A program made the translations under genes and the position numbers. 64,000 bases of DNA from Balanoglossus misakiensis (Eukaryota; Animalia; Hemichordata). The stretch is from NCBI GenBank assembly GCA_040954595.2, contig CM082595.2:8910317-8974316 (forward strand). The letters are read 5' to 3'. The notes under the pieces were generated by a model. That model was not told where the DNA came from and ran no database searches. It saw nothing but the letters and a program-made list of their open reading frames with translations. Of this stretch, positions 5,466-43,749 are shown one piece after another; position 1 is the stretch's first letter; every line of letters starts with the position of its first letter.

Positions 5466-7330
5466 CATTTCCAAAACTTGGTATGCACAGCAGATACAGC
5501 TTTTAAATTTAGAGGACCGGAACACCTAATGAAATACATGTATTAATCTTAACACAATAATTATGTATATAAGCTATTTAAAGTTAACCAATAAAGCGTA
5601 GAAGTCTGCTTGTTGTTGGACACTGATCAGTTTGGTATCAAATTTTGTTGGCACATTTTGCATCACCTCTGGCGTACTTTACCATTTCTAGGCATCCACA
5701 ACAGATACAGCCTTTGCTTTCTGTTGGAACCATGCTAACCACTTTGGCCACTCCAATGCTGCTTGTAGCTCTAATTGTCTTCTTCATGGCGGCCATATTG
5801 GATTTTCTAATAACTTTTAAAAGTTGACATTTTCATAAACTACAGGGCCAATCAAATTGTAGTTTACTGTAGGGTTGAAAGTTTGACAAAAATATCATTA
5901 GTGGTCATGTGACTTTGGGTGCCTTATTAGATTTTTTAAAAATCTCATTAAAAAATTACAAAAAATCTTTTTCTAATCAAGTTTTCAAGTGAATTGTGAT
6001 TGGTGTAACCTTATCAGAGCTAAATTGGATTTTCTGAACCCCGATTAAAAACTAAAATTCCCTATTTCTAGCCTACTCATTGAAAGCACACAATTTCCTT
6101 ATATGGATACGAGTCACCATATGATTAGAATACGTTACATATTTTGGCAACTTTCACATGTTCTTTGATCCATACTGTGCAGTTAAAAGTTTGACAATAA
6201 TATCGTTAGCAGCCATGTGACTTTGAATGCCTTATTGGAATTTTGAAAAAACTCATAAAAAATTCAAACAGACGTTTTCTAATCAAGTTTTCAAGTGAAA
6301 TGTGATTGGTGTCACCTTATTGGAGCCAAATTGGATTTCTCTGAACACTGATTTAAAACTAAGATTTCCTATTTCTAGCCTACTCATTGAAAACAAACAA
6401 ATTAGTTTTTGCCAACAATTTGTTGGCAACTCTCGCATGTCATTTGACCCAGTAATTCCAGAACTTAATTTTATGTGGATATGGCTCTTGTTAAAAAGCA
6501 TAACAGTCATGATTGTGGTCACATGAGTTTTATTGCTGCCAGGACTTAACCCAAATATTTTGATAATTTTGGCAATGACCCTTGATCCAAATTTCCAAAA
6601 CTTGGTATGCACAGCATATACAGCTGTTAAATTTAGAGGACCGGAACACCTAATGAAGTACATGTATTAACCTTAACACAATAATTATGTATATAAGCTA
6701 TTTAAAGTTAACCAATAAAGCGTAGAAGTCTGCTTTTTGTTGGACACTGATCAGTTTGGTATCAAATTTTGTTGGCACATTTTGCATCACCTCTAGCTTA
6801 CTTTACCATTTCTAGGCATCCACAACAGATACAGCCTTTGCTTTCTGTTGGAACCATGCTAACCGCTTTGGCCACTCCAATGCTACTTTTAGTTTTAATT
6901 GTCTTCTTCATGGCGGCCATATTGGCTTTTCTAATAAGCTTTAAAAGTTGAAATTTTCATAATATACAGGGCCAATCAAGTTCTAATTTACTGTGCGATT
7001 GAAAGTTTGACAAAAATATCATTAGTGGTCATGTGACTTTTGGTGCCTTATGGATTTTTTAAAAATCTCATTAAAAACTTCAAAAATCTTTTACTAATCT
7101 AGTTTTCAAGTGAATTGTGATTGGTTAAACCTTATTGGAGTCAAATTGGATTTTCTGAACAACGATTTAAAACTAAGATTTCCTATTTCTGGCCTACTCA
7201 TTAATTATTCGTGGATATGCCTCTTGTTGAAAAGCACAATGGTGATGATTTTTTTCACACGAATAGTACTGCTGCCAGGACATAACCCAAATTTTTTGAT
7301 AACATTGGCATTGAACTTTGTCCTAAGTTT
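5466..7330. repeat. ~1124-bp tandem duplication of a TE-like sequence carrying single diverged satellite-1 monomers
   Basis: Near-identical ORFs at 5645 and 6769 (offset 1124). Satellite-1-like monomers at ~6475-6590 and ~7212-7320. Motif ATGGCGGCCATATTGG in both copies. Confidence 0.85.
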
Positions 7331-13100: not shown

Positions 13101-16100
13101 ATGGCCAAAAGCAATTTTATTTGACATTGCTAATTGAACGATGACATTGAATCCGATTCTTTGCATCAGGGTAAATGGCGATGCAAGCTTGATGATGCAT
13201 CACGGTAGGTAGTGATGCAAACACTTTACTTTGACATGAGTATTAAATGCAAATGGGGATTTCAAGTTGATTACAAATCCCTGGGTTAATACGCGTCCAA
13301 AAGCACTGTAATTTGACATTGCTAATGCGATGTTGACATTGAATGTAATTCTCCGCATTAGGGCAAATGGCAAAGCAAGCTTAATGATACAATGGAGTAG
13401 ACGGTGATGCAAGCTATGCATTTTGACATAGGTATTTAATGCATGTGCATGGGTATTTAATGTTGAATGTAAATTCTCAGGTTAATACATCTCCAAAAGC
13501 ACTGTAATTTAAAATTGCTAATGTAAGGGTGACATTGAATCTGATTCTTTGCATTAGGGGAAATGGCGTAGCAAGCCTAATGATCCATCTGAGTAGATGG
13601 TGATGCAAGCTAAGCATTTTGACACAGGTACTAAATGTATATACATGGGTATTTAAAGTTGTCTGTAAATCCCCAGGTTAATACATGGCCATAAGCACTA
13701 TAATTTGACATTGCTAATGAAATGGTGACACTGAATCTGATTCTTTGCATCAGGGCATTTTGTGAAGCATGCTTGATGATGTATTAGGGTCAATAGTGAT
13801 GGAAACACTGCACTATGACATGGGTATTTAATGCATACGCATTGATATTTACAGTTGACTCTAAATCCCGAGGTTAATACATGGCTAAAAGCGCTGTAAT
13901 TTAAAATTACTAATGCAAAGGTTACATTGAATATGGGTAAATGGTGAAGCAAGCTTGAAGATGCATCAGGGTAGCTGGTGTTTCAAGCCCTTCACATTGA
14001 CATTGGAATATAATGCATATGGGGATTTAAAATTGATTGTAAATCCCTAGGTTAATACATGGCCAAAAGCACTGTAATTTAAAATTGCTAATGCAATAGT
14101 GACATTGAATGTGATTCTTTGCATCAGGGCATATTGTGAAGCATGCTTGATGATGCATTAGGGTCAATAGTGATGGAAACACTGCACTATGACATGGGTA
14201 TTTAATGCATACGCATTGATATTTACAGTTGACTCTTAATCCCGAGGTTAATACATGGCTAAAAGCACTGTAATTTAAAATTACTAATGCAAAGGTTACA
14301 TTGAATATGGGTAAATGGTGAAGCAAGCTTGAAGATGCATCAGGGTAGATGGTGTTTCAAGCCCTTCACATTGACATTGGAATATAATGCATATGGGGAT
14401 TTAAAATTGATTGTAAATCCCTAGGTTAATACGTGGCCAAAAGCAATTTTATTTGACATTGCTAATGCAACGATGACATTGAATCCGATTCTTTGTATCA
14501 GGGTAAATGGCGATGCAAGCTTGATGATGCATCACGGTAGATAGTGATGCAAACACTTCACTTTGACATGGGCATTAAATGCATATGGGGATTTCAAGTT
14601 GATTACTAATCCCTGGGTTAATACGCGTCCAAAAGCACTATAATTTGACATTGCTAATGCGATGTTGACATTGAATGTAATTCTCCGCATTAGGGCAAAT
14701 GGCAAAGCAAGCTTAATGATGCAATGGAGTAGACGGTCATGCAAGCTATGCATTTTGACATAGGTATTTAATGCATGTGCATGGGTATTTAATGTTGAAT
14801 GTAAATTCTCAGGTTAATACATCTCCAAAAGCACTGTAATTTAAAATTGCTAATGTAAGGGTGACATTGAATCTGATTCTTTGCATTAGGGGAAATGGCG
14901 TAGCAAGCCTAATGATCCATCTGAGTAGATGGTGATGCAAGCTAAGCATTTTGACACAGGTACTAAATGTATATACATGGGTATTTAAAGTTGTCTGTAA
15001 ATCCCCAGGTTAATACATGGCCATAAGCACTATAATTTGACATTGCTAATGAAATGGTGACACTGAATCTGATTCTTTGCATCAGGGCATATTGTGAAGC
15101 ATGCTTGATGATGTATTAGGGTCAATAGTGATGGAAACACTGCACTATAACATGGGTATTTAATGCATACGCATTGATATTTACAGTTGACTCTAAATCC
15201 CAAGGTTAATACACGGCTAAAAGCGCTGTAATTTAAAATTACTAATGCAAAGGTTATATTGAATATGGGTAAATGGTGAAGCAAGCTTGAAGATGCATCA
15301 GGGTAGCTGGTGTTTCAAGCCCTTCACATTGACATTGGAATATAATGCATATGGGGATTTAAAATTGATTGTAAATCCCTAGGTTAATACATGGCCAAAA
15401 GCACTGTAATTTAAAATTGCTAATGCAATGGTGACATTGAATGTGATTCTTTGCATCAGGGCATATTGTGAAGCATGCTTGATGATGCATTAGGGTCAAT
15501 AGTGATGGAAACACTGCACTATGACATGGGTATTTAATGCATACGCATTGATATTTACAGTTGACTCTTAATCCCGAGGTTAATACATGGCTAAAAGCAC
15601 TGTAATTTAAAATTACTAATGCAAAGGTTACATTGAATATGGGTAAATGGTGAAGCAAGCTTGAAGATGCATCAGGGTAGATGGTGTTTCAAGCCCTTCA
15701 CATTGACATTGGAATATAATGCATATGGGGATTTAAAATTGATTGTAAATCCCTAGGTTAATACGTGGCCAAAAGCAATTTTATTTGACATTGATAATGC
15801 AACGATGACATTGAATCCGATTCTTTGTATCAGGGTAAATGACGATGCAAGCTTGATGATGCATCACGGTAGATAGTGATGCAAACACTTCACTTTGACA
15901 TGGGCATTAAATGCATATGGGGATTTCAAGTTGATTACAAATCCCTAGGTTAATACGCGTCCAAAAGCACTATAATTTGACATTTCTAATGCGATGTTGA
16001 CATTGAATGTAATTCTCCACATTAGGGCAAATGGCAAAGCAAGCTTAATGATGCAATGGAGTAGACGGTGATGCAAGCTATGCATTTTGACATAGGTATT

Positions 16101-19100
16101 TAATGCATGTGCATGGGTATTTAATGTTGAATGTAAATTCCCAGGTTAATACATCACCAAAAGCACTGTAATTTAAAATTGCTAATGTAAGGGTGACATT
16201 AAATCTGATTCTTTGCATTATGGGAAATGGCGTAGCAAGCCTAATGATCCATCTGAGTAGATGGTGATGCAAGCTAAGCATTTTGATATAGGTACTAAAT
16301 GTATATACATGGGTATTTAAAGTTGTCTGTAAATCCCCAGGTTAATACTTGGCAAAAAGCAATTTTATTTGACATTGCTAATGAAATGGTGACACTGAAT
16401 CTGATTCTTTGCATCAGGGTAAATGGCGATGCAAGCTTGATGATGCATCCCGGTAGATAGTGATGTAAACACTTCACTGTGACATGGGTATTAAATGCAT
16501 ATGGGGATTAAAAGTTAACTGAAAATCCCTGGATTAATACAGGTCCAAAAGCACTGAAATTTGACATAGCTAATACAATGGTGACATTGAATGTGATTCT
16601 TTGCATCAGGGCAAATTGCGAAGCAAGCTTAATGATGCATCAGAGTATATGGTGATGCAAGCTATGCACTTTGACATAAGTATTTAATGCATATGCATGG
16701 GTATTTAATGTTGACTGTAAATCCCCAGGTTAATACGTGGCCAAAAGCACTGTAATTTGACATTGCTAATGCTACCGTGACACTAAATCTGATTCTTTGC
16801 ATTAGGGTAAATTGTGAAGCAAGCTTGATGATGCATCAGGATAGATGGTGTTTTAAGCCCCTCACATTGACATTGGAATATAACGCATATGGGGATTTAA
16901 AGTTAATTGTAAATACCCAGGTTAATACATTGCCAAAAGCACTGTAATTTAAAATTGCTAATGCAATGGTGACATTGAATGTGATTATTTGCATTAGGGG
17001 AACTGGCGTAGCAATCCTAATAGTGCATCAGAGTAGATGGTGATGCAAGCTCTGCACTTTGACATAGGTATTTAATGCATATGCATGTGTATTTAATGTT
17101 GACTATAAATCCTCAGGTGAATACATGGCCATAAACACTATAATTTGACATTGCTAATGAAATGGTGACACTGAATCTGATTCTTTGCATCAGGGCATAT
17201 TGTGAAGCATGCTTGATGATGCATTAGGGTCAATAGTGATGGAAACACTGCACTATGACATGGGTATTTAATGCATACGCATTGATATTTACAGTTGACT
17301 CTAAATCCCGAGGTTTATACATGGCTAAAAGCGCTGTAATTTAAAATTACTAATGCAAAGGTTACATTGAATATGGGTAAATGGTGAAGCAAGATTGAAG
17401 ATGCATCAGGGTAGCTGGTGTTTCAAGCCCTTCACATTGACATTGGAATATAATGCATATGGGGATTTAAAATTGATTGTAAATCCCTAGGTTAATACAT
17501 GGCCAAAAGCACTGTAATTTAAAATTTCTAATGCAATGGTGACATTGAATGTGATTCTTTGCATCAGGGCATATTGTGAAACATGCTTGATGATGCATTA
17601 GGGTCAATAGTGATGGAAACACTGCACTATGACATGGGTATTTAATGCATACGCATTGATATTTACAGTTGACTCTTAATCCCGAGGTTAATACATGGCT
17701 AAAAGCACTGTAATTTAAAATTACTAATGCAAAGGTTACATTGAATATGGGTAAATGGTGAAGCAAGCTTGAAGATGCATCAGGGTAGATGGTGTTTCAA
17801 GCCCTTCACATTGACATTGGAATATAATGCATATGGGGATTTAAAATTGATTGTAAATCCCTAGGTTAATACGTGGCCAAAAGCAATTTTATTTGACATT
17901 GCTAATGCAACGATGACATTGAATCCGATTCTTTGTATCAGGGTAAATGGCGATGCAAGCTTGATGATGCATCACGGTAGATGGTGATGCAAACACTTCA
18001 CTTTGACATGGGCATTAAATGCATATGGGGATTTCAAGTTGATTACAAATCCCTGGGTTAATACGCGTCCAAAAGCACTGTAATTTGACATTGCTAATGC
18101 GATGTTAACATTGAATGTAATTCTCCGCATTAGGGCAAATGGCAAAGCAAGCTTAATGATGCAATGGAGTAGACGGTGATGCAAGCTATGCATTTTGACA
18201 TAGGTATTTAATGCATGTGCATGGGTATTTAATGTTGAATGTAAATTCCCAGGTTAATACATCTCCAAAAGCACTGTAATTTAAAATTGCTAATGTAAGG
18301 GTGACATTGAATCTGATTCTTTGCATTATGGGAAATGGCCTAGCAAGCCTAATGATCCATCTGAGTAGATGGTGATGCAAGCTAAGCATTTTGACATAGG
18401 TACTAAATGTATATACATGGGTATTTAAAGTTGTCTGTAAATCCCCAGGTTAATACATGGCCATAAGCTCTATAATTTGACATTGCTAATGAAATGGTGA
18501 CACTGAATCTGATTCTTTGCATCAGGGCATATTGTGAAGCATGCTTGATGATGTATTAGGGTCAACAGTGATGGAAACACTGCACTATGACATGGGTATT
18601 TAATGCATACGCATTGATATTTACAGTTGACTCTAAATCCCGAGGTTAATACATGGCTAAAAGCGCTGTAATTTAAAATTACTAATGCAAAGGTTACATT
18701 GAATATGGGTAAATGGTGAAGCAAGCTTGAAGATGCATCAGCGTAGATGGTTTTTCAAGCCCTTCACATTGACTTGGAATATAATGCATATGGGGATTTA
18801 AAATTGATTGTAAATCCCTAGGTTAATACGTGGCCAAAAGCAATTTTATTTGACATTGCTAATGCAACGATGACATTGAATCCGATTCTTTGCATCAGGG
18901 TAAATGGCGATGCAAGCTTGATGATGCATCATGGTAGATAGTGATGCAAACACTTCACTTTGACATGGGCATTAAATGCATATGGGGATTTCAAGTTGAT
19001 TACAAATCCCTGGATTAATACGCGTCCAAAAGCACTGTAATTTGACATTGCTAATGCGATGTTGACATTGAATGTAATTCTCCGCATTAGGGCAAATGGC

Positions 19101-19995
19101 AAAGCAAGCTTAATGATGCAATGGAGTAGACGGTGATGCAAGCTATGCATTTTGACATAGGTATTTAATGCATGTGCTTGGGTATTTAATGTTGAATGTA
19201 AATTCCCAGGTTAATACATCTCCAAAAGCACTGTAGTTTAAAATTGCTAATGTAAGGGTGACATTGAATCTGATTCTTTGCATTATGGGAAATGGCGTAG
19301 CAAGCCTAATGATCCATCTGAGTAGATGGTGATGCAAGCTAAGCATTTTGATATAGGTACTAAATGTATATACATGGGTATTTAAAGTTGTCTGTAAATC
19401 CCCAGGTTAATACTTGGCAAAAAGCAATTTTATTTTACATTGCTAATGAAATGGTGACACTGAATCTGATTCTTTGCATCAGGGTAAATGGCGATGCAAG
19501 CTTGATGATGCATCCCGGTAGATAGTGATGCAAACACTTCACTTTGACATGGGTATTAAATGCATATGGGGATTAAAAGTTGACTGAAAATCCCTGGGTT
19601 AATACAAGTCCAAAAGCACTGAAATTTGACATAGCTAATACAATGGTGACATTGAATGTGATTCTTTGCATTAGGGGAAATGGCGTAGCAAGCCTAATGA
19701 TGCATCAGTGTAGATGGTGATCCAAGCTCTGCGCTTTGGCATACATATTTAATGCATGTGCATGGGTATTTAATGTTGAATGTAAATTCCCAGGTTAATA
19801 TATGCATGAGTATTTAATGTTGACTGTAAATCCCTAGGTTAATACATGGCCATAAGTACTGTAAGGGGTAGATGGTGATGCAAGCTCTGCACTTTGACAT
19901 GGGGATTAAATGCCTGCTGAGGGGGATTTTAAGTTGTCTGTAAATCCCCAGGTTGATATGTGGCCAAAAGCACTGTAATTTGACATTGCTAATGA
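10150..19995. repeat. Satellite array 2, ~192/196-bp monomers (plus a ~178-bp variant) with 388-, 958- and 1332-bp higher-order repeats
   Basis: GGTTAAT motif at 10211, 10407, 10599, 10795 (spacings 196, 192, 196). Matching ORFs recur at offsets 958 (12740/13698), 957 (17972/18929) and 1332 (13200/14532, 13698/15030, 14027/15359). Confidence 0.97.
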
Positions 19996-24553: not shown

Positions 24554-26460
24554 CAATACGCCAACCTTTAAAATATTACTTTAGAAAGTTTGTATTCATA
24601 CTTTCTTCAAGTTGTCATAACGCTACCCCGAAATGTGTTTAAGTATTGCCTTTGTATTAATGGGCTAGATTCATGGCGTTATATGTCATAAATTAAAAAG
24701 CCAACCCTTATTGATTTTGATAATATTTATGTCGGAGAATCCACAATGAAAAATATGTATTTCAATTTCATAACTCAAAATGATTTTCAAATCCATGACC
24801 TTATTTTCAACTCCAGTGATCGTACATCCTGAACCTTGTGCCAGTAAATGATTGGCCATTACAGGGTTAATGGGCACTCTCCCGTTCTCTTCCTCCGCAG
24901 TTTCATTCATGTTCTTGTTTGACGGAAATGGGTGTGACCAGACGCTTGAATGTTTTCATGTGGGTGTCGTTGTTCATCGGGATCGGTCTCCTGGTGTGTC
25001 TGTACAGGTACGCAAGGAGAAACTGCCCACAAGAAGCTGCGAGTGAAACTATTTAAGGTAGTATGTGCCTCGCGGTCCGAGATTCAGACAAATGATAGTC
25101 CTCAAAACTTTTTCAAGTCTTTGATTTACTAAAGTGTATGGTGAGTCTCTTTGAAAACAACAAAAACATTACTCACCATATTGTTATTTTTTTGAAAGTT
25201 TAAAATGAAGTTGACAATGTACCAAACAGATTCTATTTATTTCTTCATGACCATGTTCACCCCAAGGTCATATGGACCTGCAAGTATATGCCAGAGCCAG
25301 AGTCGACATTACCGAAGCCAGAGTTCAAAGCTTGCAGGTCACCCCTTGCCAGCTCATGTCTAGCTAAACTGCCATGGATGCCAAGAGATATAGGACTACA
25401 GTAACCTGTAGATGGTTTCAGTATGTTTGAAGAAAGTGGTGGCGCACTTTTGGCTACATTTGAAATGGCTATGGTACCAGTGGTTGAATTTGCAAAGGTG
25501 ACCTTTGACCTGGCATCATTAAAGATATTAAAGAACGATTGAACATTCCTTGTTGTCGTAAAATGACATCTGTAATAACTTATATTTTATCTGTTCATCT
25601 TGAAGTACTATATATTTAAACGCCAATTTTCCATTGCCAATCAATTTTTACAAATAAATTGTAATATGCATGTTGATTTTACAAAAACTCCTTACTTCAA
25701 AGTGAATTCTGTTACACATCACGTAAATATTTTCCCCACGAATTCTTCAGTTGCTGACTCGGAAATTTCATATATTGGGCAGAAATTGGATACATTACCG
25801 AGCCATTAAAATTACAGTTTTCTATTTTAATTGATCTTCCATAACTTCAAGTACTTTGATTTGACATAAATTAAAAACATCATGGTGAATAAATAAAAAA
25901 TCTTTGATTATCTAATTGTGCATGTTTACATGGTTTTATTTTAGTATGCTGGGTACTTAATGTCTAATTGCTCGCTGATTTTATACTGTTCAAGATGACA
26001 ATCTAATTTTAGTTTTCAGCTGATAATGGAAATCACTGATTAAAAAAATTGAATTTTGTCATGAATAAACTTGTTGTTCAAGGCAGTTGCTGTATTTTGT
26101 TTCATGTGTATTCAATTTTTGCAAGAATACCATTGAGCACAGTTTGATTTGATTAAACACGTTTATCGGAAAATTTTGTCATTTGAAATATCTGTTTTTG
26201 CGCCCTCTACCATTTGACCAAATGATTCTCTTATTTTGGTGGCCTTTGTCCGTGTATATGAGAATACTATAGTACTCTCGCATCGATGATAGTAGAAGTT
26301 GAAAACGTCTCTTGCCACGTGGCCTAGAAGAAAGGTGATCTTTAGAGTAAAATAAAACAAACTATCCAGATAGGAAGCTAGAAAAGAAATTGAATCGTTG
26401 AAATTTTATTTATTTTTATATTGTTAATATCGTTGGTGATGTTGACTGGCCGACAATCTT
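24554..26460. repeat. ~1.9-kb repeat of unknown class, copy 1 (uninterrupted; provides the empty site for the 36898-42268 transposon)
   Basis: Colinear with 35874-36897 plus 42272-43155 with scattered substitutions. Empty site TGTAATAACTTATA at 25571-25584. Confidence 0.93.
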
Positions 26461-28371: not shown

Positions 28372-31237
28372 TTGGAAGGGACTGCTTTAAAAGATTATGT
28401 TAGAGAGGAACAAATTAGACAGAGGGATCTTAGGGCTACTGAGAGAGAGGAGCAGAGAGAAGATAATAGGCGGCGCGAGGAACATGAGAGAGAGATACTG
28501 AAAATGCAACTTCACTTACAAGAATTAAAATTGAAAGGGGAAAATACAGAACAGCAGGTTACTGAAAATAATTTGGCCAAAGCGCGTGCTCCGAGACTAC
28601 AGGGTTTTCGTGAGGATGTTGATGATATGGATGCGTACCTTCAACGTTTTCAGCGCTACGCCACTGCTCAGAAGTGGGAAAAAGATGACTGGGGGTGAAT
28701 CTCAGTGCATATTGTTACAAGGTAAGGATGTATCCACATACAACCAAATGCCTGCAGCGTCTGCAAATAATTATGATGAATTGAAACCAGAGTTATTGAG
28801 GGCTTACCAGTTAAGTGAGGAGAGTTTTCATGACAAGTTCCGTTCGTGTATGCCACATTATGATGAAAGTGCTCAAAAGTTTATGGACCGTATTGGTGAC
28901 TATTTGGGCAGATGGGTAGAACTGGCTGGTACTCCAAAGACGTACAATGGGCTTACAGATCTGTTACTTCGAGAGCAGTTTATTGGAGTATGTTCCAGAG
29001 ACATGGCAATGTTCATTAGAGAGCGACGGCCAGAGAATGTCCAAGAGATGGTATCTACTGCCTCAAAATACTTAGATGCCCGAGGGTGGTGGAAACTGCC
29101 AAGTAATGCCAAGAATAATCCAAGGAGCCAGCCGACAGCAAATACCAGGCCTGCTGTATATCCAAATCAAGTAAAGAAGTTTAATAACAAAACCAATGGT
29201 TCCCATGTTTTTAAAGGTACGTGCTTCGTATGTGGTAAAGGTGGTCATATGGCCAAAGATTGTAGAAGTAAGCCAAAGATGCATAACACGGCGGTATTGT
29301 TAACTGAAGAAGATAGAAACTATCCACCTAAACAAGAATGTACACATTGGGGCAACCGTCAACAGCCCAGGGGACTAGACACTGGTTATGCATGTATGGT
29401 GGTAGCAATGGAAATAGATAAAACAGATGCAACACTGAATAAGGAGTTCGTGTTACCATGTGGTCATAAGCTCCCAGTGATGAGTGCTGCTTGTAGTGCC
29501 CATGGAGTGAAGAAGATGCCGGTAATGAAGGGATTGGTCGATGGTAAGCTGGTTAGCGTTTTGCGTGATAGTGGGTGTAGTAGCGTGGTAGTTCGAAGAA
29601 GTCTGGTGTCAAGTAGTCAGCTGACTGGTAAGTACAGGACGTGTGTTCTGATAGATCGGACTATTAGAAGAGTACCTGCAGCCTCAATAAAAGTTGATAC
29701 CCCTTACTTTGTTGGTGATGTTACTGCACTGTGCATGATGAACCCTGTGTATGATTTAATACTGGGCAACATTGATGGTGTATCTGACCCTTCGAATCCT
29801 GATACTACATGGCAGGAACCATTGCCGACATGTAGACTGTGTACAACTGTTGGACAGGTACCAGGTTTAGCATATGCTGTGGAGACCAGAGCCCAGAAGA
29901 TAGCCAACCAAAAACCAATCAGAGAGCTTAAAGTACCTAAAGCTGTTGGTGAAGTGGTGATGCCAGGGAAGCTTCAACAAGCTCAAGAAGAATACTCCAC
30001 TCTTGACAAACTACGTGAGAAGGCAATTTTGGGTGACCAGAAAGTGACTAGGAATGGAGGTAGGTTGAAGTTCATCATGAAAGATGGGATCCTGTACAGA
30101 GAGTTCAATTCGCCAATGGTCCAATTTGGTGAAAAGCTGTTACAGGTGGTGGTTCCCAGAGTGTATCGTAACCAGGTGATGAGACTAGCCCATGAATCAG
30201 TGCTGCGTGGTCACCACGGAACTCACAAGACCACAGACAAGATCCTCAGCAACTTCGTTTGGCCTGGGCTAACATCAGATGTTTCCCGTTACTGTCAGTC
30301 CTGTGATTCATGTCAACGGACACAACAAAAGGGACGGGTGACCAAGGTACCACTTGGAAGTATGCCACTAATAGATATCCCTTTCCTACGTATTGCAGTA
30401 GACCTGGTTGGCCCTATTCATCCATGCACTGAACGCAAGAATAGGTACATACTTACTGTTGTTGATTATGCAACACGCTATCCGGAGGCTGTTGCATTGA
30501 CTAACATTGATACCAAGACTGTTGCAGAGGCGCTCCTGGACATCTACTCAAGAGTGGGGTGTCCACGTGAAATTCTGACAGATCAAGGAACTCAATTTAC
30601 ATCAGATGTGATGCGTGAGGTCAGCCGGCTTTTGTCTATAAAGCAGATGACTACCACCCCATACCACCCAGCATTCAATGGTCTAGTGGAACGGTTCAAT
30701 GGTACATTGAAACTCATGCTCAGGAAGATGTGTGAGGAACGTCCAACATATTGGGATCGTTATCTGAATGCTTTACTATTTGCCTACAGAGAAACGCCTC
30801 AATCGAGCACAGGATTCTCTCCGTTTGAGTTACTTTATGGGAGGAGTGTGCGTGGTCCAATGGCTATCTTGAAAGAACTATGGACTGGAGAGATCAGTGA
30901 ACCAGAAACCAAAACGACTTATCAATACATCCTTGATCTTCAAAAGAAATTAAAGAAGGCATGCGATTTAGCAAGACAAGAACTGAAGATATCACAAGGC
31001 AAATACAAGTCCTACTACAATAGAAAGGCCAAATGGAGGAAGTTCAACAAAGGTGACGAGGTGTTATTGCTACTACCTACTGACCATAATAAACTACTTA
31101 TGCACTGGAAGGGTCCTTTTCCAGTGGTGGAGAAAGCGAGCAATATGGATTACAAGATTGACTTTGGTCATAGGGTGAAAACATTCCATGCCAACCTGTT
31201 GAAGAGGTACTATCGAAGAACTGATCAGCTAGAATAA
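28372..31237 (+). pseudogene. Gypsy (Gmr1-like) gag-protease-integrase, frameshifted near 28695
   Basis: Coiled-coil N-terminus, capsid/SCAN-like LLREQF, CCHC knuckle CFVCGKGGHMAKDC, aspartic protease LRDSGCS, integrase HHCC (AHES...GHHG...CDSC), core DLVGP/TDQG/VERFN and GPF motif. Confidence 0.93.
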
Positions 31238-32155
31238 GTATCAGCTGGACTTCTTGAGATTGTGTGTGTATCTGTGATAGATGAGCAGAGTTATGAATCT
31301 TCAGAAGTACAAGAGAACACAGGGGTTAAAGTAAACGATGACTTACTGCGGGTTCCTGCATTCAAGCAGAAAGAATTTGCTGCAGATGTGAATGTATGTG
31401 ACAACTTGTCAGACATACAGAAGCAAGTGGTGAGGAGGTTGCTGATCAATTACAAAGATATGTTAACTGATATTCGTGGTAACACCAACCTGGGTTTCCA
31501 TGACATCAAGTTGATGGATCCAACACCAGTATGCAGTAGGCCATACCCCATCCCTCATGCACTCCGTGAAGCAGTGAAAGATGAAGTCAAAATGATGATT
31601 AAGATGGGAGTAGCTGAACCTTCAGAGAGTCCATATGCTGTTCCACTGGTAATGGTGAAGAAATCTGATGGGTCCAATCATTGTTGTGTTGACATGAGAA
31701 AGCTCAATCGCATAACAGTGTTTGATGCAGAGCCTACACCAGACCTGAGTGAGCTTTTTGCTTTTTGCTAAGTTATCCAAGGATCACTATTTCACTAAAG
31801 TAGATCTCAGCAAAGAATATTGGCAAGTCCCGTTGACTGATAATTCTAAACAATTGACGGCATTTATCACGCATGATGGGCTATACCAATTTATCAAAAT
31901 GCATTTCGGACTTGTAAATAGTGCTGCGACTTTTAGCAGAATTATGAGAAGATTGTTAAGAGATATGAAGAACGTAGACAACTATATCGATCACATACTG
32001 ATCCACACTGCATCATGGGAAGAACATATCAAGACAATTACAGATTTGATGAGCAGACTACGAAAGGCAAAGTTAACAGCGAGACCAACTAAGTGTTATG
32101 TGGGTTATGAGCAGATCGATTTCCTGGGTCATGTGGTTGGTCATGGTGAACTAGT
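31238..32155 (+). pseudogene. Reverse transcriptase downstream of the integrase; disabled and 3'-truncated
   Basis: Motifs PYPIP, VDMRKLN, VDLSKEYWQVP, MHFGLVNSAATF and FLGHVVG. YIDD has become YIDH. Stop at 31235-31237 and frameshift near 31765. No RNase H or 3' LTR follows. Confidence 0.92.
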
Positions 32156-32254
32156 CCTGTTTCAAAATGACCTACATTACAGGTCCTATGCAAACGTATT
32201 ACATGTTCTGATTGGTTTATCCACTTCTCTAAGGTCCACTTGCGGCTCGCTGAT

Positions 32255-32510
32255 TGGAGGGACCTTATGTGTTAGGTCTTATTACTATGTATTATTCACC
32301 AGACCTTGTAGGTTAGGTCTTATTACAATGCATTATTCACTTTACAGCTCCCTGATTGGTTAATGTGTAGGTCTGGTCCTCCAGTGTTCACTGCCTCATT
32401 ATGCAGGACCTTGTAGGTTAGGTCTTATTAATATGTATTTATTCACCATACAGCTCCCTGATTGGTTAACGTGTCAGTCTGGTTCCCCCCAGTGTTCACT
32501 GCCTCATTGT
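32255..32510. repeat. Short imperfect tandem repeats (GACCTTGTAGGTTAGGTCTTATTA...)
   Basis: Copies at ~32261, ~32302 and ~32406. Confidence 0.7.
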
Positions 32511-35759: not shown

Positions 35760-37839
35760 AGCGTTAACATAACTTTGACAGAATAAGTTAACGCCATAAC
35801 TTTGACAGAATAAGAGTTGCCTCAAACGGCTCTAACCGAATTTCCATTAATAGCAGAACAAACAAGCTGTAATCAATACGCCAACCTTTAAAATATTACT
35901 TTAGAAAGTTTGTATTCATACTTTCTTCAAGTTGTCATAACGCTAACCCGAAATGTGTTTTAGTATTGCCTTTGTATTAATGGGCTAGATTCATGGCGTT
36001 ATATGTCATAAATTAAAAAGACAACCCTTATTGTTTTTGATAATATTTATGTCGGAGAATCCACAATGAAAAATATGTATTTCAATTTCATAACTCAAAA
36101 TGATTTTCAAATCCATGACCTTATTTTCAACTCCAGTGATCGTACATCCTGAACCTTGTTCCAGTAAATGATTGGTCATTACAGGGTTAATGGGCACTCT
36201 CCCGTTCTCTTCCTCCGCAGTTTCATTCATGTTCTTGTTTGACGGAAATGGGTGTGACCAGACGCTTGAATGTTTTCATGTGGGTTGAGTTGTTCATCGG
36301 GAACGGCCTCCTGGTGTGTCTGTACAGGTACGCAAGGAGAAACTGCCCACAAGAAGCTGCGAGTGAAACTATTTAAGGTAGTATGTGCCTCGCGGTCCGA
36401 GATTCAGACAAATGATAGTCCTCAAAACTTTTTCAAGTCATTGATTTACTAAAGTGTGTGGTGAGTCTCTTTGAAAACAACAACAATATTACTCATCATA
36501 TTGTATTTTTTTGAAACTATAAAATGAAGTTGACAATGCACCAAACAGATTCTATTTATTTCTTCATGACCATGTTCACCCCAAGGTCATAAGGACCTGC
36601 AAGTATATGCCAGAGCCAGAGTCGACATTACCGAAGCCAGAGTTTAAAGCTTACAGGTCACCCCTTGCCAGCTCATGACTAGCTAAACTGCCATGGATGC
36701 CAAGAGATATAGGACTACGGTAACCTGTAGATGGTTTCAGTATGTTTGAAGAAAGTGGTGGCGCACTTTTGGCTACATTTGAAATGGCTATGGTACCAGT
36801 GGTTGAATTTGCAAAGGTGACCTTTGACCTGGCATCTTTAAAGATATTAAAGAACGATTTACCATTCCTTGTTGTCGTAAAATGACATCTGTAATAACAC
36901 TGCGGCCCAAACGCCGCCCTCTCGGGGCAGTATTTCTGTGGCGCGTTTCAATAGCTCATGAATAATTAATTAGCGCGATCATGGCGGTCGCTCAGCGGAG
37001 CTGAAACCTGAATACAGTGAAATTCGGTAAGTGTTTCTTGTCATTTTTTACGATCTACTGCACCATACATAATAGTGTTCACAGTAAACGAAACAAAAAT
37101 ATTATTTCATCTGTACATTTCATATTGAATCACTGAAATAACTTTAAAAATAACTGATTTACCGCGCGGGTGTGCTGTTGCTAACGACAGCACTGCCCTC
37201 AGCAACCACTTACACAGGGTGGAAAATTCAACGATTTAGCCTTGCTAACCTGTTATCTGACATTTCAAAACCATACGAGTTTACCTAACTATGGTTATTT
37301 CACGGATGTTATATTTGAACAACTGCTACCACAGGTTTAACGAAATTACACCAAGCGATTCTCGATACCTCAGCATGTCGTACGCCTCCGGCTGTGTTTA
37401 CATGTACTGCAATGGCGACACGTCTCAGCTGTCACTGCGTGTGGTTTTGTTAGCAAAAGTCTGAGTTGGAATGGATTAAATTTTAAAATCGAGAACCAAT
37501 AGTTTTAGCTAAATTACGTACTTAATGCATTACACTATAAATGCAAAGTTAAAAATCAAAACAGAAAATTTTGAACCTGTGTCTGCGCAGTACAGTTATA
37601 TTCACTCCAATTCTCCCATTGAAATATGCCCATCTCTGCGTATACACGTTGGTATGTATGGAGAGCTGTGGTCGATATGCCTAGCTCAGAGCAGGTTTTA
37701 TCAAATGTCTTTCAGTGATTTTCTTTGCATTGCTGTTGGGTATCGGTTGAAAAATACTAAAGTCACTAATGTACTATAAATATACATGCATAATTATTAA
37801 TTATTATACATTCTTATTCATTGTAATTTTCCTCTTCAG

Positions 37840-38305
37840 ATCAGAAACAGCTCAGGTATGTGGTGGAGTAAACTGTTACTTAGATGTAGGGCACCCCTGC
37901 AAAGTTTATCCATCAACATGCCAAGTAGGAAAGAAAAAAACATACTTCAACATAGGTCAGTGGGCAAAGGAACAGAAGCTAGCCAGAGAAATTGCAAAGG
38001 AAAAGCATTCACAGGAGCTATTAAGAGAAAATTCAAAGACTAGGTCATTGCTAGAAAGAGTGCAGACTAATGCCTTGCTATAGAGGACAGAAGAATGCCA
38101 GCCAAAATATCGGTTTAACTTGGGGGAGTGGTCTAGACAGCGGAAGAGAAAGAGGGATCAGGAGAGTAGCATAATCGAGGATAACCTTAATAAGATCAGT
38201 GCTGCTAAAAGACTAGTAAAACGGGCTAAAACCCGTCTTGCTAGACTTGAGCAGAGGAATAATAATGTGAGACAGGAGTTAGGTGCTAGGACCTACAGTA
38301 TAAAG
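37840..38305 (+). pseudogene. Predicted upstream coding exon of the transposase, with an in-frame TAG at 38081-38083
   Basis: Acceptor TTTTCCTCTTCAG ends at 37839. ORFs 37769-38083 and 38120-38314 share a frame and are separated by a single stop. Donor AAG|GTACAG is phase 0, matching the acceptor ending at 38536. Confidence 0.6.
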
Positions 38306-38536
38306 GTACAGTGAGTTTAAACGATTGAATAAATTTAATTTGTCAGTTTTACTCAAATAGAATTCAATCATATGCACAGTTAGCTAATGTTAGGGGAACA
38401 TCGTCTGTTTTTATCATGCATATTTTGAAGTCCTTGGGATTACTAGCTTGCTCCTATAATCACAATGAAATGCTCAAAATTTAGGCTGATAAATCCACTA
38501 ACCTCTTCATGTACATTTTTTTGTGTAATCTTGCAG

Positions 38537-40768
38537 AGAAAACTAGATGCTTTGCAACCCAGGTGGATTCACAAGAACTCAGAAGTGTGTGAAGATAACA
38601 GTGAGGTTTTGACAATATCACGGCGTGAACAGTATGAACGTAGATGTAAAACCTTGTCAGCCGCCACATCTATTCATGTATCAACAACCGATACCAGTTT
38701 AGCCAATGGTGTAGGTAATTTTACCAGATTGAAACCTTCAAAAGCTGCACTTGATGGTTTGTGGTTTACCCTCATCAACTCTGCCAAACCTGAACAGATT
38801 GAAACCTATTTGAAAACATCACCTCAAATCAGAGAGAAATTAATGCCATCGATAGTAGACAAATCTATTGATCAATTTGAAAAAAGTGAAAGCAATTTAA
38901 TAAGGAGTGTCAGAGTTCTGTATGAGGGTGGAGTGCTATCAAAACGCAAATACACTTGTCTGAGGCTGAGTGAACTGCAAACATCATCTAAAATACAAAA
39001 TCCAAGTAGGGCAATGCAGTTTCACTTTGGCTGCAGAATACCAAGATTACTGACATACAACAAAGTTGTACGCTATGTTAGTAATCTTGATATTTGTACT
39101 CTTGAACCCATTCTGACAGCAGAAGGGAAACAGGTAGGTTTGAAACGTAACATTGAAGAGTTACTTGTTAAGATTGCCAATCTGTATTTACAAATGAAAT
39201 CAACCCAGCCAGACATTCTTAACTGGTTTGATAGACAAGAAGGTAACTTCCAGATTAGTATAGGTGCTGATGGTGCACCATTTGGAAAACATGGCCAAGC
39301 TACTGCCTGGTTGGTCAGTTGTTTGAATGTTGGACATCGTGTTGCAAGCCCAGATGATAATTTTCTACTGTTGGGGGCAAATCTCAAAGAAGATGATCCG
39401 ATTATGATTGACTATGCACATTCATTATCAAAAGAACTGAATTGTATCCAGAAACGTAAATACAATGTTGGCAATCTTTGTGTGACTTTCCAAGTTTCGC
39501 TCTTGCCTTTTGATCAGAAAGGTTTAGCTTCAATGCCTGGAGAGCTTTCCAATGCTGCACAGTACTTAAGCTCTTTTGCTAATGTTTCAAAGTCAGATAG
39601 AGATTGTATTGGAGCAGATATTGGTCCAGGTAAAAAATGGCAAGAATGGTCATATGACAAACGCATTAAAGATGTTGAAGCTGTGGAGAAATTCAAATCG
39701 CAACCAAAGAATAGAGATGGCAAGCCAAAAACTGTGCGGCCAAAAGTCACTAAATTTATAGCCAGTAGAAAATCCAGACAGGAATTTGTACCCCCTCTTG
39801 GTCGATTTATCGACTGTGCTAAAGTTGAACCATTGCACATGAAAAACAATGCATGGCAGTACTATTTCCAGATGCTGTTGATAGATGCAGTTGCTCACAC
39901 TTCACAAACAGATTTTGATAAGGGGGTTAAGATTGAAAATCTCCCAAAGGAGTCTTGTCTATACAAATTCCTGTCTGCATTAAAATACCAAGTGAGAGCT
40001 GGAAAACTGTACAACAAAATTTGAAAGTTCTTTAGTGAAAACAATGCAAAATCACTTTCTCAAATAAGTGCTGTTTATCGCTTTACTGGGGAAGAGTCCC
40101 GTAAACTAGCATGGAAATTCATGTCACTGATTAAGACACCCATGGGTGATAAAGATAGTGTAAAGCGGCGAGCTCGATTGGCTCTTTTCACATATCTTGG
40201 GTTGTTGCTGAGGGATATTACCTTGCTCTTTTCAAGGTTTAATCTGAGTGAAGGGGATTTACTTGTCCTGAAACAGAAATGTACATGGTACTTTAACCTC
40301 CATTCACTATTTTTTGATGTAAATAATACTGTTTGGCATATTGGATACGCAGTACCTAAACATGCAGCAAGTGTGTATCAGCAATTCAAACTTGGTTTGG
40401 GGTTGAATACTATGGAAGGTCGAGAAGCAAAACATCTTCGTCTTCTTGAATTGAGTAAGAATTCCACTCCTCAGAACAGGTGGACCCTCATATTCCGCCA
40501 TGAATACACAATGCTCTTTTGGCTAAGAGAAAGAAATCCAAAAGCAGACAAATATAGGCGGGCCAATCTAGTTCAGTATGAACTTAAAGAAAGAGAAAAA
40601 TATATACCCAGTCTGTACTATGACAGTGCAGGTTACTGTATGTGTGGTAACATGAAAGATGAAGCAGTGTCTACATGTAAAATTTGTAATGACCCAGTTA
40701 TTGCTGAAATAAAACAAGCAGCAGTGTCTGGCAAGCTGAGTAATAAACTGAAGAAAATTGTTCTGTGA
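38537..40768 (+). pseudogene. DDE transposase related to RAG1/Transib/Chapaev, with an in-frame TGA at 40022-40024
   Basis: The 519-aa and 215-aa ORFs share a frame and are bridged by KFFSEN...VYRFTGEESRKLAWKF. Motifs in order: IGADGAPFG (D, 39269), PFDQK (D, 39512), VEPLHMKNN, YRFTG, WHIGYAVPKH, GLGLNTMEGREAKH (E, 40424), then a C-terminal CxC...CxxC. Confidence 0.78.
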
Positions 40769-41378
40769 AGTGTATTTGCCCTTCTGTGCAAAATGTTTCC
40801 TGTTTCAGTGTTTTTAACTTACCGTGTTGAAATGTTGTGAATGTCAAATTGAAATGAATGATATTATTAACATGTATTAAACTGGAAATAAACTCTGCCA
40901 CACTTCTGTGTTCACAACTGTTACAACAGATGCATGTCAGGCCATTGTAACTAAACGGTATATATGCAACATCATGAACTTCAGTATTCTCACAGTGTAC
41001 ATAAACATGTCATGATTCTGATACAACTGCATGTTATCTGTACTAACACAAACCTTAAATGCAGGGTTAATGTGATATTCTATTACAGTCTAAATGAATA
41101 GATTTGAAACGTTTGTGTCTTAAGTCTATCATATTACAATAATATTGAATATAATTATAAGATTTCCTTGCTAAGTAATTAACGATAATCAGAATACATT
41201 AATTTAATGTAGTTAAAATCACAATAAGTTAACTTTCAAATCCCATGAATTGTATATATCAAATTGAATGATTTTATATTTATTGAATGCTAAGAAAGTT
41301 AAATGCAATTTATAATGAAATTCATGACAATTCCTTGTACTTCTGCTGTATTGCATGTAATGTTGATTGTTGGAATTG

Positions 41379-41421
41379 AATAAAGACAATACTACTTCAT
41401 TTTCAATCTACTGTTTTTATT
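41379..41421. terminator. Candidate opposing polyadenylation signals between the convergent genes
   Basis: AATAAA (+) at 41379-41384 and TTTATT (AATAAA on -) at 41416-41421. Another + AATAAA lies near 40887. The context is AT-rich, so chance occurrence is possible. Confidence 0.35.
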
Positions 41422-41530
41422 TCTTAATTAATGAGAACACAACACCGACAAACTGTATATATTGACTGAAGTGTCAAGAGTATTGGACAGAAGGCCAATT
41501 TTGCATTAGACTTGCAATGTTACTGATGTT

Positions 41531-42184
41531 CTAGTTCTCTGAGTGCATTGGAATGCTGTGTTTGTTCCAGGCTCCAAAGCAAAAGTTGACCACAACAGAT
41601 TCCCTGTTCATGTAGTATTTGACAATACACGGCTTTGTTTCTGTGCATATGACAGCCACTCGCTTTCCTTTGACCACTCTCGCCAGCACATTCTCCTTAT
41701 CTTCCGGTCCGAGATTTCTGTCATCACAGCAACCTCTCCGCAGGACGTAAGTCAGCTTCAATAGGTTGGTAAAGGTCAAGGTTACGATGGCCTTGGACGT
41801 CTTCTCATGGATCCCAAAACTATTCCGAGTGGCGTCATGATGAAATACAGCAAACACTTCCTTGGGCATTTGTCTAGAAAAGCCGCTTTTCCAAGGCGAT
41901 CTCAACGAAGGTGAGGCTGACAGGCGTGCGTGGAAACAACGCAGCCAGTGACCCATTTCACGTTGGAAAATAGGGAATACCGCAACATCTCGATAACGAA
42001 TTTTGTCTTTTGTAATCTTGTCGTTCCTCAGTAGAACCCTTTTGGCTGAATCGGACAATTCATCAAACAGGGAATGTACATGTATAACATCCAACATACA
42101 TTTTCGACGCAGAATTAATGACTTAGCAGCTCGTAATTTGCGCTGTATGATTTTCTCCGTATCAACCAACACGGCCGCCGCCAT
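41531..42184 (-). CDS. Intact 217-aa basic protein of unknown family; transposon-borne second gene
   Basis: Uninterrupted ATG-to-stop ORF starting 84 bp inside the right terminus in a CAAGATGGCGG context. Minus-strand AATAAA at 41416-41421. Confidence 0.7.
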   Translation of the reverse strand: MAAAVLVDTEKIIQRKLRAAKSLILRRKCMLDVIHVHSLFDELSDSAKRVLLRNDKITKDKIRYRDVAVFPIFQREMGHWLRCFHARLSASPSLRSPWKSGFSRQMPKEVFAVFHHDATRNSFGIHEKTSKAIVTLTFTNLLKLTYVLRRGCCDDRNLGPEDKENVLARVVKGKRVAVICTETKPCIVKYYMNRESVVVNFCFGAWNKHSIPMHSEN

Positions 42185-43749
42185 CTTGGAAAAAGCGTTG
42201 CTACGGTGATGGCGGCAATCGCGCTTCGCGGAATACTGCTCAAACTACAGTGGGTCTGGCCCGTAGTGTAACTTATACTTTATCTGTTCATCTTGAAGTA
42301 CTATATATTTAAACGCCAATTTTCCATTGCCAATCAAGTTTTTACAAATAAATTGTAATATGCATGTTGATTTTACAAAAACTCCTTACTTCCAAGTGAA
42401 TTCTGTTACACATCACGTAACTATTTTCCCCACGAATTCTTCAGTTGCTAACTCGGAAATTTCATATATTGGGCAGAAATTGGATACATTACCCAACCAT
42501 TAAAATTACAGTTTTCTATTTTAATTGATCGTCCATAACTTCAAGTACTTTGACTTGACATACATTAAAAACATCATGGTGAATAAATAAAAATTATTTG
42601 ATTATCTAATTGTGCATGTTTACATGGTTTTATTTTAGTATGCTGGGTACTTAATGTCTAATGGCTCGCTGATTTTATACTGTTCAAGATGACAATCTAA
42701 TTTTAGTTTTCAGCTAATAATTGAAATCAATGATTCAAAAAAATTGAATTTTGACATGAATAAACTTCTTGTTCATGGCAGTTGCTGTGTTTTGTTTCAT
42801 TTGTATTCAATTTTGCAAGCATACCATTGAGCACAGTTTGATTTGATTAAACACGTTTATCGGAAAATTTTGTCATTTGAAATATCTGTTTTTGCGCCCT
42901 CTACCATTTGACCAAATGATTCTCTTATTTTGGTGGCCTTTGTCTGTGTATATGAGAATACTATAGTACTCTCGCATCGATCATAGTAGAAGTTGAAAAC
43001 GTCTCTTGCCACGTGGCCTGGAAGAAAGGCGATCTTTAGAGTAAAATAAAACAAACTATCCAGATAGGAAGCTAGAAAAGAAGTTGAATCGTTGAAATTT
43101 TATTTATTTTATATTGTTAATATCGTTGGTGATGTTGACTGGCCGACAATCTTTGCATACAGCAATATCTTTCAAGATAAATAATTTATGTCCTAAAGGT
43201 ATTACTTTTAGTGGTCTGACGGAGATTTTTTCTGCTGTAACATGCAAAACCTGCGGCGGACCTGAGGTCATGTTGCGAACACTGTAGTTTTGTTACGCCC
43301 GCCATCCTTCGGACGTTTACCTCATCGGGGCTTCTTTGGGGAATCAGCCACGTCCGAAGGGTGAGAGTGTAAATTCTCTCCCTCTCCTTCTCCACCCAAC
43401 ATATTCATAGAGTCAGAGAGAGGTACCCGGCATATCGTAAACTTAACGAGAGGCATAACGAGACTTTCAACAAGTTTTCCGAGTAACACAAATAGTTCTG
43501 GTTTATTACTGGTCACACGTAAGAATTACACGACTCTATCCATGCTCGTTGACTCCCGTCACGGATCTCCGGTGATAATAATGTGATATCAAATTTCACC
43601 ACCTCTTATTAATACGTTAGTCAAGTATTATGTCATAAAAAGAACACGTCATCTTAATATTTCTTAAACATGAACTTAGCGCGTGATATCTCTATCTCGT
43701 TCTGACATGTATCAATTACACAATCTTGTTTACTCTGAGTCAAGTACCT

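Follow-up and report, generated by a model that had tools for sequence, protein, structure and literature searches.

What is the small gene that faces a broken transposase gene in the genome of the hemichordate Balanoglossus misakiensis? The stretch analysed, called the window below, comprises 64,000 nucleotides (assembly GCA_040954595.2, contig CM082595.2, positions 8,910,317 to 8,974,316 of the forward strand), and all coordinates without a locus name refer to it. An earlier note, made from the letters of the window alone, had described an intact 217-codon open reading frame (ORF217) as an orphan standing where RAG2L stands in the ProtoRAG transposon. We show here that ORF217 represents ORF2, the conserved second gene of a mobile two-gene element related to Chapaev and Transib, whose transposase has a predicted RAG1-type core.

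ORF217 belongs to a conserved protein family

Reading of the open frames confirmed an intact ATG-to-stop frame of 217 codons, intronless as the earlier note had it, and convergent with the transposase gene.

41531..42184, minus strand: ORF217 (ORF2), 217 aa, intact, convergent with the transposase (ORF call and homology)
41416..41421, minus strand: AATAAA, predicted polyadenylation signal about 110 nt past the ORF2 stop codon (from sequence only)

Only five ORFs in the window, this one included, reach 150 aa. Open frames of 217 codons are expected by chance 0.009 times per window at the composition of the window, and 0.35 times at the composition of the ORF itself. Because of the second figure length alone is weak evidence for a gene, and homology decides. 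No match was obtained in a word-indexed protein search with ORF217 alone as query. An exhaustive HMMER search with ORF217 found 69 relatives at E≤1e-3, seven of them at E≤1e-10 (best 1.9e-14), so the frame is not an orphan. The relatives are mostly about 205–245 aa long, and the alignments reach the C-terminal end of both proteins.

Two alignments were prepared, one of 40 sequences (the query and 39 of the 69 matches) and one of 81 (the query, 62 of the 69 matches and 18 ORFs from the loci described below). Both show the same family motifs: a MA(A) start, an RR..P....PW..F.R..P.E.F block and a YGxWNxxGxPQH end. The C-terminal end of ORF217 is FGAWNKHSIPMHSEN. Clusters of the family contain up to 216 near-identical members on separate contigs, none with an informative name. 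A family profile search yielded 18 further proteins, and all 18 carried the precomputed Pfam accession PF26709.1; the family is probably already curated as Pfam entry PF26709. No paper mentioning PF26709 was found in a literature search.

Scans of ORF217 against Pfam and NCBIfam detected no domain of any kind, including the kelch, PHD and Myb/SANT domains that the earlier note had also failed to see. Among 40 relatives Pfam gave only scattered single weak matches, and a profile search of PDB sequences with the family gave nothing meaningful (best E 0.17). The proteins are basic, with isoelectric points of 9.93 for ORF217, 9.38 for the family median, and more than 8 for 57 of 64 members. Two long relatives were observed. 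In P0276 (397 aa) the ORF2-family segment is joined to a reverse-transcriptase domain, and in P0182 (558 aa), a long member of an ORF2 cluster, it is joined to other sequence; both are probably gene-model fusions with neighbouring elements.

ORF2 accompanies the transposase in diverged loci

Metagenome contigs were scanned with an alignment of the transposase, giving 80 loci. A hidden Markov model of the ORF2 family detected a relative in 34 of these, with E values from 1e-25 to 1e-54, in every case on the strand opposite to the transposase and downstream of it. Sorted by the amount of DNA downstream of the transposase match, ORF2 was present in 21 of the 23 loci with at least 2 kb, 31 of the 34 with at least 1.5 kb, and 34 of the 43 with at least 1 kb. 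The relatives thus adjoin transposases of the GADGAPFG type, a check that the earlier note had proposed, and the capture of a host fragment by the window copy alone, which would have spoken against its proposal, is ruled out.

Six copies of the L007 family share the segment L007:2395-9813 at 98–99% and diverge beyond it, and the ORF2 ATG lies about 100 bp inside the boundary of the shared unit. ORF2 thus lies inside the mobile unit. A terminus pattern was recognised in 22 of 26 loci. That of L002 (+23) is probably spurious, and in the other 21 the ATG is 76–131 bp inside the right terminus. Pairs of 14-bp inverted repeats with 0–3 mismatches were present in ten loci and were perfect in L028, L025, L017 and L019. 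Matching 3-bp duplications flank three of these ten elements (AGC in L028, ATT in L025 and TAG in L019), as well as the copy in the window.

Internal repeats were also seen within some of these elements. About 105 bp of ORF2 coding sequence at L007:9307-9414 recurs as an inverted copy of 92% identity at L007:3131-3234, near the left part of the element and upstream of its transposase gene, and L009, L010, L011, L014 and L006 have the same arrangement. A transcript across both inverted stretches could pair with the ORF2 mRNA. In addition, this element family has a tandem duplication of about 170 bp (86% identity; L007:7397-7730) between transposase and ORF2.

Co-divergence and selection

For the ten loci in which both genes are intact, pairwise identities of ORF2 and of the transposase were compared. 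The two were correlated (Spearman 0.753, 45 pairs), and none of 2000 permutations reached this value. The mean pairwise identity was 0.25 for ORF2 versus 0.41 for the transposase, ORF2 being the faster-evolving protein.

Ratios of non-synonymous to synonymous substitution (dN/dS) were calculated for the ORF2 of locus pairs by the method of Nei and Gojobori. Comparison of L008 and L073 with L037 gave 0.31–0.33, from 22–23 synonymous and 28 non-synonymous changes (binomial p 3.7e-4 for L008/L037). The ratio was 0.52 for L004 versus L037 (p 0.028) and 0.51 for L008 versus L004, the latter resting on only 14 changes and not significant. In pairs with 47–55% amino-acid identity dS was saturated (dN 0.37–0.46), and near-identical pairs had too few changes to be informative. 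Where it is measurable, dN/dS is thus 0.3–0.5. These codon comparisons indicate that ORF2 is under purifying selection, and the conservation across copies on which the earlier note had made its proposal depend is found.

Both genes are intact in 18 of the 34 loci, ORF2 alone in nine and the transposase alone in four, and both are damaged in three. The asymmetry of nine to four is predicted by gene length alone, because ORF2 is 3–4 times shorter.

The window contains a young, inactivated copy of the element

The element and the features at its two ends are as follows.

36898..42268, plus strand: whole transposon copy, 5,371 bp, cut-and-paste; bounded by comparison with an empty paralogous site
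36895..36897: left target-site duplication, 3-bp TAA (read from sequence)
42269..42271: right target-site duplication, 3-bp TAA (sequence and empty-site comparison)
25576..25579: empty paralogous target site in the second copy of the flanking repeat, TAAC present once (blastn)
36898..36912, plus strand: left terminal inverted repeat CACTGCGGCCCAAAC, 12/15 identical to the right end
42254..42268, minus strand: right terminal inverted repeat, read inward CACTACGGGCCAGAC, imperfect relative to the left end
36927..36934, plus strand: second conserved block GCAGTATT at +30..+37 of the left end, an 8-mer equal in both ends
42232..42239, minus strand: second conserved block GCAGTATT at +30..+37 of the right end, at the same offset as in the left end

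When the region was compared with the window by blastn, the flanks 36701-36898 and 42269-42500 matched 25382-25579 and 25576-25806 at 98% and 97%, respectively. Since both flanks are contiguous in this second repeat copy (25382-25806), the element is a bounded insertion at 36898-42268. TAA was chosen over a possible TAAC as the duplication because it yields symmetric CAC...GTG ends. The termini are then CACTGCGG/CACTACGG, and CAC...GTG is common to the ends of relatives, CACGCCGGGC and CACGCTGGG.

Contigs from two DNA runs of one sample were used for comparison. They contain the empty-site joint 36894->42269, and in them the right end also enters a different flank after 42268. They span the whole element at depths of about 116 and 336, versus thousands for the flanking repeat. 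The sequence into which the transposon inserted is a short host repeat (36701-36897 and 42269-42500, and again 25382-25806) with at least two copies in the window; it is a very high-copy repeat of the host, since its word depth in the run contigs is in the thousands.

The window copy differs from the run contigs at about 23 positions across the 5.4-kb element. It is a young dead copy with three private breaks in the transposase gene, and a break-free version exists in the same organism. Between 41481 and 42268, a segment that includes ORF2 and the right end, there are no differences, versus about four expected (P about 0.016); this is only a weak hint of selection on ORF2. ORF2 is intact in this copy because the copy is young and the gene short, and the earlier note's caveat that shortness alone could account for the open frame holds here.

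The transposase has a predicted RAG1-type core

The transposase gene was resolved into two predicted exons.

37918..38305, plus strand: predicted transposase exon 1 (frames; splice sites by eye)
38537..40768, plus strand: predicted transposase exon 2, with the RAG1-type core (homology and fold match)

The N-terminus encoded by exon 1, MPSRKEK.., resembles the MPRKRNN..IG..AK start of the Nematostella protein P0045. The two nonsense codons already reported are TAG at 38081-38083 in exon 1 and TGA at 40022-40024 in exon 2. To these we add a third break shortly past the start codon at 37918, where the A run 37934-37940 is one letter too long. In the DNA-run contigs both stop codons have other letters and the A run is one shorter.

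For the frame 38465-40768, read with X at the TGA codon, 93 relatives were found. The best match is to a Ptychodera flava protein annotated as 'uncharacterized protein' (80% identity), the others having 32–44%. They come from the cnidarians Nematostella, Porites, Dendronephthya, Actinostola and Desmophyllum, from the nemertean Lineus, and from many unnamed contigs. A precomputed Pfam hit was present in one of the 93, and it was a bromodomain. An N-terminal bromodomain is found in the relatives P0070 and P0095 of Lineus longissimus, where it may reflect a gene-model fusion or a genuine fusion to a chromatin reader.

Pfam (E≤1) and NCBIfam gave nothing for the pieces of the window transposase, and Pfam at E≤10 matched no transposase family in 27 members of the family. 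In a profile search of PDB sequences at E≤10 no RAG1, RAG1L or Transib chain appeared (best E 0.54). An AlphaFold model of the Ptychodera protein, built on a 27-sequence alignment, had a pLDDT of 86.6 and a pTM of 0.85. Its top Foldseek matches were all RAG1 chains (E 5.7e-11, about 630–700 aligned columns), followed by HzTransib (7.8e-7) and amphioxus RAG1L (5.1e-6). Structural scores were 19.7 for BbRAGL and 19.6 for HzTransib, then 12.5 for the P element, 7.3 for ISCth4 and 6.3 for Hermes. The transposase is thus predicted to contain the whole RAG1/Transib-type core, although sequence profiles miss its likeness to RAG1.

Three acidic residues, D181 (in GADGAP), D262 (in LLPFD) and E566 (in GREAKH), are invariant in the 27 sequences. 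In the model they lie in the strand 173-182, just past the strand 250-259, and in the helix 563-575. These positions fit the DDE triad of an RNase-H fold, and we regard the residues as putatively catalytic. Beyond the RAG1-aligned part there is a C-terminal CxC...CxxC cluster (residues 637-653 of P0003) in which C637, C639 and C650 are nearly invariant and C653 is invariant; it is likely to be a small zinc-binding tail.

Predicted structure of ORF2

A model of ORF2 built on the 81-sequence alignment had a pLDDT of 91.7 and a pTM of 0.79. Helices at residues 2-26, 33-53 and 69-87 precede a compact alpha/beta domain of seven strands (99-206). ORF2 is therefore predicted to consist of an N-terminal helical hairpin (2-53), a third helix, the alpha/beta domain and the invariant YGxWNxxGxPQH tail, the hairpin being predicted to be of the kind that forms dimers in histidine kinases.

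Foldseek found no match to the ORF2 model in the PDB at E≤1e-3 (best E 0.025), and RAG2 chains were absent from the matches. The best match in the BFVD viral library had E 1.1e-3 with a TM score below 0.2, and the ESM Atlas gave no usable match to the whole protein or to residues 88-217. The possibility that ORF2 is a piece of the transposase was ruled out, alignment of the two profiles with hhalign giving a probability of 0.1. The model is thus without a convincing structural match; a new fold is not claimed.

A YY1-type motif overlaps the ORF2 start codon

Three short motifs near the ends of the element may bear on its expression.

42180..42188, plus strand: GCCATCTTG, YY1-type motif (AAGATGGCGGC on the ORF2 strand), overlapping the ORF2 start codon (sequence)
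42209..42216, plus strand: second, oppositely oriented ATGGCGGC, with GCCAT at +56 inward from the right terminus (sequence)
36981..36987, plus strand: left-end ATGGCGG, 83 bp inside the terminus, opening a 7-codon frame only (sequence)

Both end positions given in the earlier note were reproduced. The ORF2 ATG (42184) has the YY1-type context CCAAGATGGCGGCGGC and is separated by 84 bp from the right terminus at 42268, and the left-end ATGGCGG at 36981 is 83 bp from the terminus at 36898. Among relatives, 17 distinct start contexts (27 copies) were compared, the internal MAAN methionine being taken for four loci of one family. AAnATGGCG was present in 15 of the 17, the Ala2 codon was GCG in all 17, and the next bases were GC in 14. 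The conserved motif AAnATGGCGGC is the YY1 consensus. The fixed synonymous position of the Ala2 codon suggests that the DNA itself is constrained. An inward GCCAT is present at +17..+74 of the right end in seven of the ten relatives with paired ends. Left ends with an inward ATGGCGG at +61/+62 are found in L017/L019 and L007/L011 as well; no long frame starts from it there, and in the window a splice-donor-like GT comes after the left-end motif, near 37027.

Positions 42180-42188 of the plus strand are an exact copy of the TR5 element of ProtoRAG, GCCATCTTG (PMC7481187). TR5 is present in both ends of ProtoRAG, binds YY1, and aids promoter activity and recombination, and both ends act as promoters (PMC7481187, PMC8289069). 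By analogy, each end of the present element may drive one gene inward, with YY1 as the putative binding protein, and the left-end ATGGCGG is predicted to be a putative promoter and 5′ untranslated element of the transposase gene.

What does ORF2 do?

On balance we incline to the view that ORF2 is a putative accessory transposition factor that would bind the transposase, subterminal DNA or both. A promoter around the YY1-type AAnATGGCGGC of the right end would direct ORF2 transcription inward, and the left end would likewise direct transcription of the transposase. ORF2, probably as a dimer, would then help the RAG1-fold transposase to recognise, pair or cleave the transposon ends. Its job would correspond to that of ProtoRAG's RAG2L, of TnpA in En/Spm elements and of Harbinger's Myb-like protein, performed by a protein of unrelated fold.

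Several observations weigh against an accessory factor. The solved HzTransib structures contain the transposase alone, so a partner is no general need of the fold. Three loci with 1.8–4.6 kb of downstream DNA (L026, L052 and L068) had no detectable ORF2 even with filters off, so the transposase may get by without ORF2 or with a diverged partner. The transposase is intact beside a short or broken ORF2 in 4 of the 34 loci. In two of the three informative comparisons dN/dS is about 0.5, only moderately below 1, and the intact ORF2 of the window copy is by itself no evidence of selection. In seven of the ten loci with paired ends the 3-bp duplications did not match, an outcome that may come from chimeric repeat contigs in the metagenomes.

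The conservation, linkage and basic charge of ORF2 would fit equally well with an element-encoded regulator or host-interaction factor, such as an inhibitor, a copy-number controller, or a chromatin-targeting or anti-silencing protein. We consider such a role possible, though unlikely. Its faster evolution (0.25 versus 0.41 mean identity) is typical of proteins in conflict with the host, and the three loci without ORF2 suggest that it may be dispensable for transposition. The nine loci in which an intact ORF2 stands beside a broken transposase also point this way, but that excess is expected from gene length alone. Moreover, that ORF2 co-diverges strictly with the transposase and keeps a fixed place near the terminus suits a core component at least equally, and Pfam searches and Foldseek searches of the PDB revealed no similarity to a known silencing suppressor or chromatin reader.

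We think it improbable that ORF2 works as a small enzyme on DNA ends, nucleotides or chromatin. Its active site would be made up of the invariant polar residues R87, N207 and H214, together with W206 and the C-terminal PQH. In favour of such a role, polar or aromatic residues occupy the near-invariant positions, which cluster in the last strand and the tail, and the alpha/beta domain is compact and confidently predicted. Against this, searches of Pfam, NCBIfam and the PDB matched no enzyme family or fold, invariant residues are few and form no recognisable catalytic motif, and the conserved tail would serve equally well as a docking peptide. An open frame arisen by chance, or the capture of part of a host gene by a single copy, might have been suspected from the 0.35 such frames expected per window at the composition of the ORF. 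This explanation is refuted by the 69 relatives, the same position in 34 diverged loci, the co-divergence and the dN/dS below 1, and we give it practically no weight.

Other sequences in the window

Three satellite arrays together occupy more than one-third of the window: 1-5466, with a 116-bp unit; 10188-19804, with about 50 copies of a 196-bp unit at 76% match; and 43753 to about 58000, which is AT-rich and has periods of 27, 105 and 181 bp. On the plus strand, 28616-31237 is an open frame of 873 aa in which a CCHC zinc knuckle and integrase-like motifs were recognised by eye, and 31899-32363 is a 154-aa frame resembling a reverse-transcriptase fragment. The block holding these two frames is richer in G+C (0.41–0.44), and the frames are probably a rearranged remnant of a long terminal repeat retrotransposon.

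Implications

The origin of adaptive immunity poses the question of how RAG1 came by RAG2, the partner it cannot do without. Transib acts on its own and ProtoRAG needs RAG2L, and we know of no intermediate. The element described here represents a widespread transposon lineage of marine invertebrates (hemichordate, cnidarians and nemertean) that combines a predicted RAG1-type core and a ProtoRAG-like layout, CAC ends and YY1-type end motif with a conserved partner of unrelated, unmatched fold. If ORF2 proves to be a cofactor, it would be a second independent case of partner dependence in this class of enzymes, and one open to experiment. Some loci, L025, L019 and L072 among them, have both genes intact between matched ends, making activity assays feasible. 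If ORF2 is instead a regulator, it would be a new type of transposon-encoded control protein. Either way, searches at the level of the fold reveal RAG1-type transposases that domain libraries have missed.

A broader scenario, which we offer as speculation and think rather doubtful, is that the layout of a transposase with a convergent partner, the CAC ends and the YY1-type end promoters are older than RAG2. A deep sister lineage of RAG1/Transib would have kept a different, structurally novel partner since before the split of cnidarians and bilaterians, the partner slot being exchangeable. If so, RAG2L, the kelch protein, would have replaced an ORF2-like helper in the RAG ancestor, or the replacement ran in the opposite direction, and ORF2 would be the first cofactor other than RAG2 of a RAG1-fold enzyme.

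Comparison with known transposon systems

In En/Spm and PIF/Harbinger a smaller protein of DNA-binding type, TnpA and the Myb-like protein respectively, is encoded beside the DDE transposase. In having a second, smaller protein the present element resembles both, and they offer a functional model for ORF2. Harbinger also makes a 3-bp duplication, TWA. Membership in PIF/Harbinger was ruled out: neither DDE_Tnp_4 nor a Myb/SANT domain was matched in Pfam, and the structural matches are to RAG1.

The likeness to ProtoRAG and other RAGL elements lies in the layout, a tail-to-tail gene pair between inverted ends that start with a CAC heptamer. The right-end heptamer CACTACG agrees with TR1, CACTATG, at six of seven positions (PMC7481187, PMC8289069), and the end region contains GCCATCTTG, identical to TR5 (PMC7481187). 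The spacing differs, TR5 lying 27 or 31 bp after TR1 in ProtoRAG, whereas here the motif is at +84 and overlaps the start codon. In the RAGL elements of amphioxus, echinoderms and hemichordates the target duplication is 5 bp, as against 3 bp here. No RAG1 match was found at the sequence level in Pfam or among PDB sequences, the likeness being structural only, and the partner is a hairpin with an alpha/beta domain instead of a protein with a kelch propeller and a PHD finger. The 3-bp duplication, the lack of a sequence-level RAG1 match and the non-kelch partner rule out membership in RAGL/ProtoRAG. The earlier note's placing of ORF217 in the RAG2L slot thus stands for the tail-to-tail genes, the CAC...GTG ends and the exact TR5/YY1 motif, but the element itself is not a RAGL member.

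Transib, as represented by HzTransib, makes a 5-bp duplication and has a single gene, whereas the present element has a 3-bp duplication, two genes and no sequence-level match to it. With neither the 5-bp duplication nor the single gene, we do not assign the element to the Transib superfamily on these features.

A literature search, which did not cover Repbase Reports or Dfam, found no paper on an element of Chapaev or Transib type that has a second gene of this kind. As for Chapaev, the 27 members of the transposase family matched no Pfam transposase family, a comparison from which the Repbase and Dfam consensuses were absent. In the N-terminal 130 aa of the window frame or of P0045 no Cys/His cluster was seen that would mark the cysteine-rich Chapa zinc-finger domain of Chapaev, although further exons may lie upstream. 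There are also differences. Described Chapaev3 elements are about 1.9 kb long with one ORF of 485–561 aa (PMC3014272), whereas the present element is 5.4 kb long and encodes a transposase of about 870 aa together with ORF2. The Chapaev3 duplication is TWA, with which the TAA in the window agrees, but AGC, ATT and TAG in relatives do not all fit it. The likeness lies in the hallmarks of the ends: Chapaev makes target duplications of 3–4 bp and has invariable 5′-CAC...GTG-3′ termini (PMC4079192, PMC3014272), and a 3-bp duplication with CAC...GTG termini is what we find here. Both occur in animal hosts, cnidarians included. Kapitonov and Koonin (2015) placed Chapaev in the Transib superfamily, its transposase being only distantly related to Transib and RAG1 (PMC4411706), and the transposase of the present element is likewise only distantly related to both.

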